This document shows, piece by piece, positions 12,281 to 13,407 of a stretch of 64,000 bases of DNA. Position 1 is the stretch's first letter. Every line of letters begins with the position of its first letter. Made by a program: the position numbers and the translations under genes. The notes under the pieces are model-generated. The model did no database searches. It saw only the letters and a program-made list of their open reading frames with translations, and had not been told where the DNA came from. Origin of the DNA: a virus; the IMG/VR virus record IMGVR_UViG_3300032323_000894, positions 11,650-75,649 of that record, one strand, 5' to 3'.

Positions 12281-13407
12281 TGCCACGCTTTTTCCTAGGC
12301 GGGGTATTCACTTCAGTCCGTGAAAGACTCGCGGACGCATTCGTGCGAGGTGATAGAGACGATTTAGGAGTAGCTCAAGACGGTAGCCTATGGACTAATA
12401 TTCGTTCTGGATTAAGAATTTCAAATAACCGTGTAGTAGCTACAAACCCTGGTCAATTTCCTATGTCCACTATTGACATGCCCTCTACTAACGTAGACAT
12501 CGCACTAACAGGTGTGACTCAGGGTGCTGGAGCGGCTATTTGGGTACAGAGCAGTGCTGATTGGACAGCAGTTACTATTGAACAAGAGTCTCGGGTTATT
12601 CCTCCTACTACCCAAACCCTAACAGGAACTTTTCAAACCTCTGCTAGCAACAACTCCTTTACTTTTACACGGGAAGAGGATGTCCCATTTACCGACTTTG
12701 CTGGTGGTAATCCATTTACTGAAAATGGATTTAAACAAGTAACAAATAATGCGACTGGGTTTAGGAATGCTACTGGTAACTTTTTTTACACCTCACGGGT
12801 AAACTTTACGTATTTAGTTACGGGCACAGGCTTCTACACCTATGTGTCAGGTAAACCACCCAGAGTTCTTACGGGCTCATTTGTCTGGGCCAGAAACGCT
12901 ACAGGAACTTACAGTATTACGGAAAGAGCACCGTACACATACAGAGAGTCGTTTACTTTTCAAGTAACAAACACAGTAGCCTGGTCTCGTACAGCGTTTA
13001 ACGCTCTAGAGCCTTTTACTAATTACTTTACGCGGTCGGTTACGGAGTTTGTTCCTGGATTTAGTTTTACGGTGTTTGCTCCGTTTACCTACTCAGTAAT
13101 AGTTCCAGAAACAACAGTTTTTGACCAAAAAGTTAGTATTCGACAATCTATTGCTGGAAATATTCAGTTACTAACTTCGTGGGTAGTCTCTTCTAGCCAA
13201 GTAATTCGCTCTTTATTGGTGCGTACCCGAGGTAACGAAGTGACTGTTCGCCCGTATTCTGATGGAAACTTAGTAGCTCAAGTTGGCGACGACCTAGTAT
13301 ACACTGCTACTGGAGCTTCAGTTAATACGCGATTCGGTATAACCCTAGCTCCTTCCCCAAACAATCAAGGAAACACGGTAGCCACCACAGCTTCTATAAC
13401 TACGTAG
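12280..13407 (+). CDS. Beta-sandwich virion protein carrying a ~170-aa Thr/Phe/Asn-rich insertion
   Basis: Start moved to the TAATG overlap at 12280. Globular N- and C-terminal parts flank a beta-rich low-complexity insert. Confidence 0.6.
   Translation: MPRFFLGGVFTSVRERLADAFVRGDRDDLGVAQDGSLWTNIRSGLRISNNRVVATNPGQFPMSTIDMPSTNVDIALTGVTQGAGAAIWVQSSADWTAVTIEQESRVIPPTTQTLTGTFQTSASNNSFTFTREEDVPFTDFAGGNPFTENGFKQVTNNATGFRNATGNFFYTSRVNFTYLVTGTGFYTYVSGKPPRVLTGSFVWARNATGTYSITERAPYTYRESFTFQVTNTVAWSRTAFNALEPFTNYFTRSVTEFVPGFSFTVFAPFTYSVIVPETTVFDQKVSIRQSIAGNIQLLTSWVVSSSQVIRSLLVRTRGNEVTVRPYSDGNLVAQVGDDLVYTATGASVNTRFGITLAPSPNNQGNTVATTASITT

Follow-up and report, generated by a model that had tools for sequence, protein, structure and literature searches.

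The 64,000-nt window analysed here, meaning the whole stretch of DNA under study, belongs to a viral contig of 75.6 kb from IMG/VR (record IMGVR_UViG_3300032323_000894; estimated completeness 78%). On its plus strand, at positions 12280–13407, it carries a gene for a 375-aa protein, the target of this analysis, in which a long hypervariable segment is inserted, as a predicted hairpin stalk, into a predicted concanavalin-A-like (ConA-like) lectin scaffold. Comparison of the target with its relatives places the two arms of this segment side by side in an antiparallel register, and we consider it probable that the protein is a fibre-tip accessory whose ConA-like scaffold carries an in-register hairpin of about 2 × 85 residues, bundled with other copies and serving as a basic-tipped probe. 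The gene assignment draws on the open reading frame (ORF) list, homologues, an AlphaFold 2 (AF2) model and structural superposition with VIA-align; its start is likely the ATG at 12280 rather than the GTG at 12250 given in the ORF list.

Register of the stalk arms in the window protein

Along the plus strand, the N-terminal half of the predicted jelly roll (aa 1–106; 12280–12597) is followed by the outgoing stalk arm (aa 107–190; 12598–12849), a tip turn of sequence G-K-P-P (aa 191–194; 12850–12861), the returning arm (aa 195–279; 12862–13116), and the C-terminal half of the jelly roll together with the stop codon (aa 280–375; 13117–13407). Both jelly-roll halves are conserved in the alignment, and their predicted local distance difference test (pLDDT) scores are 80–88 and 80–86, respectively. 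An earlier note on this DNA, made from the letters alone, had described a Thr/Phe-rich insert running from IPPTT to VPETT with GKPP at its centre and with aromatic/Thr motifs. The translation bears this out: the insert (aa 107–279; 12598–13116) has 173 aa between those ends, contains FTFT, FYTY, YTYR and FTVF, and is 19.7% Thr and 13.3% Phe, compared with 10.4% and 3.5% outside it. Only the arm lengths differ, the note giving about 85 and 88 aa and the measured arms being 84 and 85 aa. The basic character of the tip runs on past GKPP into R195.

The same note had inferred that a globular domain carries one long, projecting antiparallel hairpin, an idea that now finds support in the AF2 model, in covariation between the arms, in a signature at the midpoint of the insert and in the mirrored cysteines of relatives. 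In the AF2 monomer of the window protein, DSSP assigns strands to residues 95–190 and 195–304 and a turn to 191–194, making one continuous hairpin in which GKPP is the only turn and, at the model's centre, the only residues not assigned to a strand. Three short breaks in the outgoing arm are mirrored in the returning arm (108/277, 125/260 and 143/242). Because the model of the insert is of low confidence, we tested the register from the sequences themselves.

For this we used 24 close homologues (<90% mutual identity, 45–96% identity to the window protein, near-equal lengths) and averaged column-pair correlations along every antidiagonal, that is, along every possible hairpin register. The charge correlation was most negative at i+j=385 (mean −0.26 over 21 variable pairs, rank 1 of 214), and so was the correlation of side-chain volume (mean −0.12 over 79 pairs, rank 1 of 209), with a row-permutation P <0.001 in each case. 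This is also the AF2 register, in which residue 190 pairs with 195, and the compensatory pairs, plus with minus and large with small, extend from 117/268 out to 182/203. Repeating the analysis with a second alignment, and with each of four subclades left out in turn, kept charge at rank 1 and volume at ranks 1–4; hydrophobicity covariation gave no clear peak on the antidiagonals, charge and volume alone being decisive. The covariation, together with a mirror symmetry found throughout the family, shows residue i to adjoin residue 385-i in an in-register antiparallel arrangement.

The beta-ribbon nature of the stalk is suggested by the AF2 model and by the Ser/Thr pattern, whose autocorrelation has a period of 2 in the window protein and its close group. 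Rungs at register 385 comprise no same-charge pairs, three opposite-charge pairs and no aromatic–aromatic pairs, and the arms have amphipathic faces: in the distal half, one face consists of Ser/Thr/Asn (43–57% Ser/Thr), and the opposite face is 21–43% aromatic, with each aromatic facing Gly or Ala. In the favoured reading, the chain would leave one hairpin of the sandwich, run out for ~84 residues, turn at G-K-P-P-R and run back for ~85; fully extended, the ribbon would measure ~20–28 nm. Since an exposed aromatic/Gly face needs burial, we infer that the ribbons bundle, and the distal aromatic face is probably buried against other copies on a presumably trimeric fibre.

A related arrangement keeps the arms paired and has three copies bundle or swap arms on the trimeric fibre to form a six-stranded needle or prism, which we judge possible though on balance doubtful. 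Mtd_N-capped fibre proteins are trimers, the aromatic/Gly face of the amphipathic distal ribbon is unbroken and would have to be buried, and the very long solved hairpins found with Foldseek all sit inside oligomeric barrels or tubes. Covariation and cysteine mirroring are moreover blind to whether pairing is within or between chains, whereas the AF2 monomer pairs the arms within one chain.

Mirror symmetry across the protein family

A word-index search returned 36 close relatives of the target, and a profile search of 1.84 billion cluster representatives returned 422 at E<=1e-3, with lengths of 245–576 aa. The analysis thereby defines a large, unnamed family of putative fibre-tip proteins, 422 clusters at 50% identity, that occurs in metagenomes and is known solely from uncultured phages. 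We found no Pfam or PHROG family and no PDB sequence or profile match for it, no match to the target protein among 50,697 phage isolates (DNA or protein), and no relative of the family in 185,579 prokaryote genomes (one genome per species); in BFVD, every member listed is an uncharacterised protein from 'uncultured Caudovirales phage'. The alignment shows conservation over the first ~106 residues and the last ~96, with a stretch between them that is hypervariable in both sequence and length. Measured in 142 dereplicated relatives between W95 and residue 290, two scaffold anchors placed symmetrically in the window protein, the insert ranges from 71 to 394 aa, and its length is kept within subclades (e.g., 188–197 at 45–51% identity).

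Across this range, the midpoint of the insert keeps a distinctive composition. In every one of four length classes, charged residues make up 2–5% of the arms versus 9–11% of the central bin. This central charge comes from K/R and not from D/E; K/R account for 9–11% of the midpoint bin and 0–2% of arm residues in all four classes and in both clades, and the midpoint peak occurs in Cys-free and Cys-rich members alike. Pro and Gly also peak at the normalised midpoint family-wide. The densest charge window lay within 0.4–0.6 of the insert in 59% of proteins versus 24 ± 3% in shuffled sequences, and in 42% versus 22.5 ± 7% when the Cys-free clade was taken alone.

Repeats in the arms are matched as well. 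In the 443-aa homologue P0055 each arm bears GSNYGxxG octads at its base, and in P0175 five CYQT units stand opposite five PYNCN units. Among Cys-free sequences, P0055, P0032, L020, L021 and P0069 have tandem repeats in both arms, symmetrically placed close to the base, with unique sequence near the tip; the repeat types include GSNYGxxG octads and PYTSN pentads opposite xYTSGxT units, and AF2 assigns them no structure. In many relatives the periodicity of the arms is 5–8 residues, not 2, and such arms need not be plain beta-strands.

The most extensive mirroring is that of cysteines. Of the 142 relatives, 40 have no Cys in the insert (the window protein among them), none has 1–3, and 102 have 4–46; the number is even in 101 of the 102 Cys-bearing members, and there is almost no Cys outside the insert. 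Counts in the N-terminal and C-terminal halves of the insert differ by a summed 59, versus 340 ± 27 under a binomial null, and the i-th Cys from each base lies at an equal distance (r=0.98, slope 1.02, intercept 0.02), with a mean mirror offset of 4.0 residues versus 11.5 for random placement. In P0123, whose arms are 140 residues long, 23 pairs are mirrored; P0064 combines five pairs at the base with a single one close to the tip, at 119/122. The mirrored rungs could be either disulfides or metal sites. As further observations, a C-x-C-x-x-C motif stands at the base of both arms in 23 members (e.g., CNCQTC ... CNCQTCYPQY), Cys spacings of 5 residues, a misfit with a regular beta-ribbon, are common, and other Cys-rich examples are the proteins P0146 and P0090 and the loci L005, L006, L008, L013 and L018.

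From the midpoint signature, the Cys ladder and the matched repeats we conclude that the two arms touch each other over their full length in the whole family, and that a change of length in one is balanced by change in the other. The question raised in the earlier note, whether length changes are paired across the centre, is thus answered in favour of symmetry: a K/R tip stands at the midpoint in every length class, with repeats and cysteines to match. In a tree of the scaffold, all Cys-free members form one clade, with only two changes of state; the ladder is therefore evidence from the sister clade. The window protein, with no Cys in its insert, lacks the even, mirrored set that the 102 relatives have, and within its own clade the evidence is the basic midpoint together with covariation and the AF2 model.

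Several observations weigh against the hairpin reading. The pLDDT of the insert is only 45–65 in the AF2 model, and AF2 used the same alignment that holds the covariation, so that these two lines are not independent. On the octad-repeat homologue P0055, AF2 left the stalk unstructured (pLDDT 31–43), and that model says nothing on the position of the turn. In the window sequence alone, the mirror correlation of hydrophobicity near the centre was not above that of shuffles; mirrored charge density within the arms of 64 relatives reached a mean z of only 0.25 (p=0.066); and for Cys-free members the N arm aligned less well with the reversed C arm (z 1.0) than with the C arm read directly (z 2.3). 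Shared repeats dominate these alignments, so that the comparison does not discriminate. Finally, the Cys ladder belongs to the sister clade, the window protein's clade being without Cys.

Low pLDDT in the window model, the structureless stalk of P0055 and the extreme variability of sequence and length would also suit a disordered, low-complexity spacer with no defined structure. We regard this as very improbable, given the register-specific compensatory covariation, the mirrored and even-numbered cysteines, the period-2 patterning and the constancy of insert length within subclades. It is likewise unlikely, though less remote, that the arms pair and then coil or fold back into a compact beta domain or solenoid with little projection. 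The ribbon could bend at the three mirrored AF2 kinks (~108/277, 125/260 and 143/242), and the 5- to 8-residue repeats of other members misfit a plain beta-ribbon. However, the compensatory signal forms a single antidiagonal with no second contact set seen, the Foldseek matches are extended pore-state hairpins at a root-mean-square deviation (rmsd) of ~40 Å, hence an elongated model, and the continuous range of insert lengths is hard to reconcile with a fixed fold.

A wider proposal builds on the hairpin reading: the stalk may be an evolvable depth gauge or probe, a single hairpin mounted on a lectin module at the fibre end, its length adjusted by matched changes in the arms and its assembly served by three downstream genes (DUF6065-p138-DUF6065). 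Stalks would then span 2 × 35 to 2 × 197 residues, or roughly 10–60 nm, and would owe their stability either to an aromatic/Gly zipper, the case of the window protein, or to mirrored Cys rungs, up to 23 of them. We see this as a real possibility that falls somewhat short of being probable. If the hairpin reading is true, the stalk would be by far the longest beta-hairpin known and the first to project freely and to evolve in length through matched changes on either arm. The family would also constitute a natural experiment on the stabilisation of two-stranded ribbons, one clade using an aromatic–Gly zipper and the other a Cys ladder.

Scaffold fold, proposed fibre-tip setting and known systems

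In a VIA-align 2 search of 48,161 PDB representative chains, the best match to the scaffold was the carbohydrate-binding module (CBM) CBM66 (4b1m; Z 15.7, rmsd 2.8, 149 aa), alongside the mycobacteriophage Douge baseplate (8zdo_a; Z 15.0), the receptor-binding domain of TM4 gp23 (9n6a; Z 14.8) and CBM2 of the phage J-1 Dit (5ly8; Z 11.9). C-terminal domains of glycoside hydrolase family 43 (GH43), legume lectins, VIP36 and ERGIC-53 fell within Z 10–15, the last three at Z 10–12, and Foldseek gave VIP36 a probability of 0.97 for the scaffold. Structural neighbours in BFVD and the ESM Atlas were ConA/LamG-like proteins and actinophage minor tail proteins. The scaffold is modelled at pLDDT 80–88 in the window protein and at ~97 in P0055. 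Invariant residues of the alignment lie in both halves, namely G82, A85, A86, W88, V89, Q90, S92 and W95 in the N-terminal half and S304, D328, N330, Q334, G336, L339, T344, G345, G353 and P358 in the C-terminal half. On the AF2 model, aa 1–106 and 280–375 fold together as one ConA-like jelly roll, a two-sheet sandwich superposable on solved members; by sequence, we found no membership of a curated ConA clan (Pfam-A and PHROG at E<=0.01; PDB sequence/profile at E<=10).

The model thus gives the target a globular domain of the lectin/CBM type found in phage receptor-binding proteins, a putative carbohydrate binder. The ConA-like domains 9n6a, 8zdo, 5ly8 and 4b1m have the jelly-roll fold in common with it (Z 11.9–15.7, 149–177 aligned residues), and the first three belong to phage host-recognition proteins. 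They differ in having no sequence kinship to the target (no Pfam, PHROG or PDB match), we noted no comparable insertion in them, and no PDB match joins a long hairpin to a jelly roll.

Directly upstream on the plus strand, at 11777–12280, lies a gene for a shaft-less fibre module of 167 aa that consists of an Mtd_N cap (Pfam, E=2.3e-12) and a C-terminal fibre domain of ~100 aa, with PHROG matches to the C-termini of tail-fibre and minor-tail proteins. Its stop codon overlaps the target's ATG at 12280, and in ~20 related loci the start of the target homologue similarly overlaps the stop of the fibre gene directly upstream. The fibres of those loci are 170–1435 aa long and share the C-terminal domain. 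With its cap and C-terminal domain only, the window's fibre protein differs from the 538–1435-aa fibres of related phages (L005:4417-8004, L008:3685-7992 and others); that of L004 is likewise short, at 170 aa. In one locus (L019), two tandem target paralogues (6792-8351, 519 aa; 8371-9624, 417 aa) lie between the fibre gene and the first DUF6065 gene. The virus is a myovirus, with a sheath gene at 22433–23962 and baseplate genes at 29548–33473, and is distant from every cultured phage, the best sheath match being 31% identical (Bacillus phage BCD7).

A conserved framework with a hypervariable projection, encoded right after the distal fibre gene in a parallel to gp37/gp38 of T-even phages, leads us to read the target as most likely a fibre-tip adhesin or probe. 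Through its conserved scaffold the target would dock with the conserved C-terminal domain of the fibre protein whose gene directly precedes it, and the hypervariable, basic-tipped stalk would be the distal probe that touches the host surface, its length and tip sequence setting reach and specificity. If so, the stalk is an obvious candidate for the host-range determinant in this uncultured myovirus lineage.

The setting recalls the gp38 adhesins of the T2/T6/S16 type, small separate proteins encoded downstream of the distal fibre gene that combine a conserved framework with hypervariable host-range segments. The fold of gp38 is a polyglycine-II sandwich. The target gene stands, as gp38 does, immediately 3' of a fibre gene, in the window and in ~20 loci, but its product is modelled as a ConA-like jelly roll with a hairpin and has no gp38 family match in Pfam or PHROG; we accordingly do not place it in the gp38 family or fold. 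The tip needle of T4 gp37 (Bartual et al. 2010; PDB 2XGF) is reported to have a chain that runs out and back, with a ladder of His-Fe sites, at the distal end of the fibre. Likeness to the target family lies in the out-and-back chain, the ladder of paired residues (Cys in the sister clade) and the inferred distal fibre site. The gp37 needle, however, is part of the fibre chain itself, an interwoven trimer of lesser length that lacks a lectin scaffold and has His in place of Cys; it was not among the structural matches returned by Foldseek or VIA-align.

Pore-forming toxins were the top Foldseek matches in the PDB to the complete model, namely pore-state aerolysin, lysenin, epsilon toxin and anthrax protective antigen (PA), with E-values of 4e-5 to 1e-3. 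Their template modelling (TM) scores are 0.05–0.14 at an rmsd of ~40 Å and only the hairpin matches, so the resemblance is one of shape and not of kinship, and the target is not an aerolysin-like protein. The pore-state stems of lysenin (5ec5), aerolysin (9fm6) and anthrax PA (3j9c) are the longest solved hairpins and the best local 3Di matches, with Ser/Thr-rich amphipathic strands as in the target's arms; they differ in having unrelated globular parts, in existing only as 7–9-mer barrels and in being much shorter than 85 residues per arm. One could suppose on this basis, and from the nearly uncharged, Ser/Thr/aromatic-rich arms, that the target's hairpins oligomerise into a membrane-inserting beta-barrel of the aerolysin/lysenin kind that pierces the host envelope. 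That seems to us highly improbable: besides the low TM-scores, the scaffold is ConA-like and not aerolysin-like, the 85-residue arms are several-fold longer than a membrane span, and the gene sits among fibre genes rather than tail-tip or lysis genes.

Theta-defensins, tachyplesins and protegrins have cross-strand Cys pairs mirrored about a turn, with 2–3 rungs in ~18 residues. The target family resembles these peptides in its mirrored Cys (102 of 142 relatives), but with up to 23 rungs over 140-residue arms. We found no description of the family in the literature on long-hairpin, disulfide-ladder or cysteine-ladder fibre proteins, and no solved structure or paper with a single-chain hairpin of 2 × 35 to 2 × 197 residues or with a ladder of as many as 23 mirrored Cys rungs. 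The function class, a lectin-fold phage receptor-binding accessory, is already known; the stalk is not, and there is a substantial chance that it represents a new structural principle.

Downstream genes, modification and other features of the window

Downstream of the target, all on the plus strand, lie a DUF6065 paralogue (DUF6065a; 13438–14127, 229 aa; phrog_7084 at E=5.9e-37 and a weak PF19541 match), the small conserved protein p138 (14103–14519 in the ORF list) and a second paralogue (DUF6065b; 14494–15156, 220 aa; phrog_7084 at E=4.3e-39), whose synteny is conserved. Across 24 IMG/VR loci the gene order is fibre gene, target, DUF6065a, p138, DUF6065b; in most related loci the p138 homologue is flanked by the two DUF6065 genes, and DUF6065a comes right after the target homologue in 21 of the 21 loci that have downstream DNA. 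For p138, the ATG at 14127, whose overlap is with the stop of the gene before it, is a likelier start than the listed TTG at 14103 and gives a protein of ~130 aa (homologues, 110–146 aa); p138 has no family match in Pfam or PHROG. Alignment of DUF6065 proteins has 35 invariant columns, including those of K-x-C-x-P-F-x-D, HPLNR-x-x-LPF, G-x-x-D-x-D and IPAGTP-x-x-Q-x-IP-x-KR. The stretches G(I/V)xDxD and P(I/F)AQ recall dUTPase motifs 3 and 4; searches for the fold (profile and single sequence against the PDB; ESM Atlas) gave no PDB, significant Pfam or literature match. The three genes would serve the folding, attachment or maturation of the stalk protein, and the DUF6065 proteins gain a concrete partner to test with.

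The earlier note had tied both these genes and a GT60-like enzyme further downstream to the insert; linkage holds for the DUF6065-p138-DUF6065 trio and not for the GT60-like gene, which is adjacent in 4 of 24 related loci. Its emphasis on N-x-T/S sequons fares no better, for all of them are present (NNS124, NAT157, NAT163, NFT175 and NAT206) at a number expected by chance: 5 in the window insert versus 3.1 ± 1.5 in composition-preserving shuffles. In the Cys-free clade, N-x-S/T is enriched (z 2.6) to the same degree as the reverse motif S/T-x-N (z 2.7), an equality that same-face alternation in strands would yield, and the extended bacterial sequon D/E-x-N-x-S/T shows no enrichment (z 0.4). 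On these sequence counts the case for N-glycosylation is weak. A reading of the insert as chiefly a glycosylation substrate, with neighbouring phage glycosyltransferases acting on the sequons or on the Thr-rich face, can appeal to the three glycosyltransferase-like genes <=3 kb from the target, to the retention of NAT157 in 13 of 20 close homologues and of NxT163 in 11 of 20, and to the Ser/Thr content of one ribbon face. We nonetheless think it improbable in view of the sequon counts and of the gene positions, that of the GT2-TPR gene varying among loci and the GT60-like gene being seldom adjacent.

Nor does the target appear to be an Mtd-like variable protein of a diversity-generating retroelement (DGR), since the window contains no template/variable repeat pair: no direct repeat of >=40 nt touches 12598–13116 within the 64 kb, a search that does not cover the upstream 11.6 kb of the contig. 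The 'Tentaclins', which are C-type lectin targets of DGRs, are unrelated to the target family. Elsewhere in the window, positions 4034–9423 hold at least 14 copies of a repeat at 120-nt spacing that encodes blades of the type S-T-D-x-x-x-W-T...R...F-G. The copies span three ORFs (3725–5830, 6186–8363 and 8373–9722) and are beta-propeller blades common to neighbouring structural genes.

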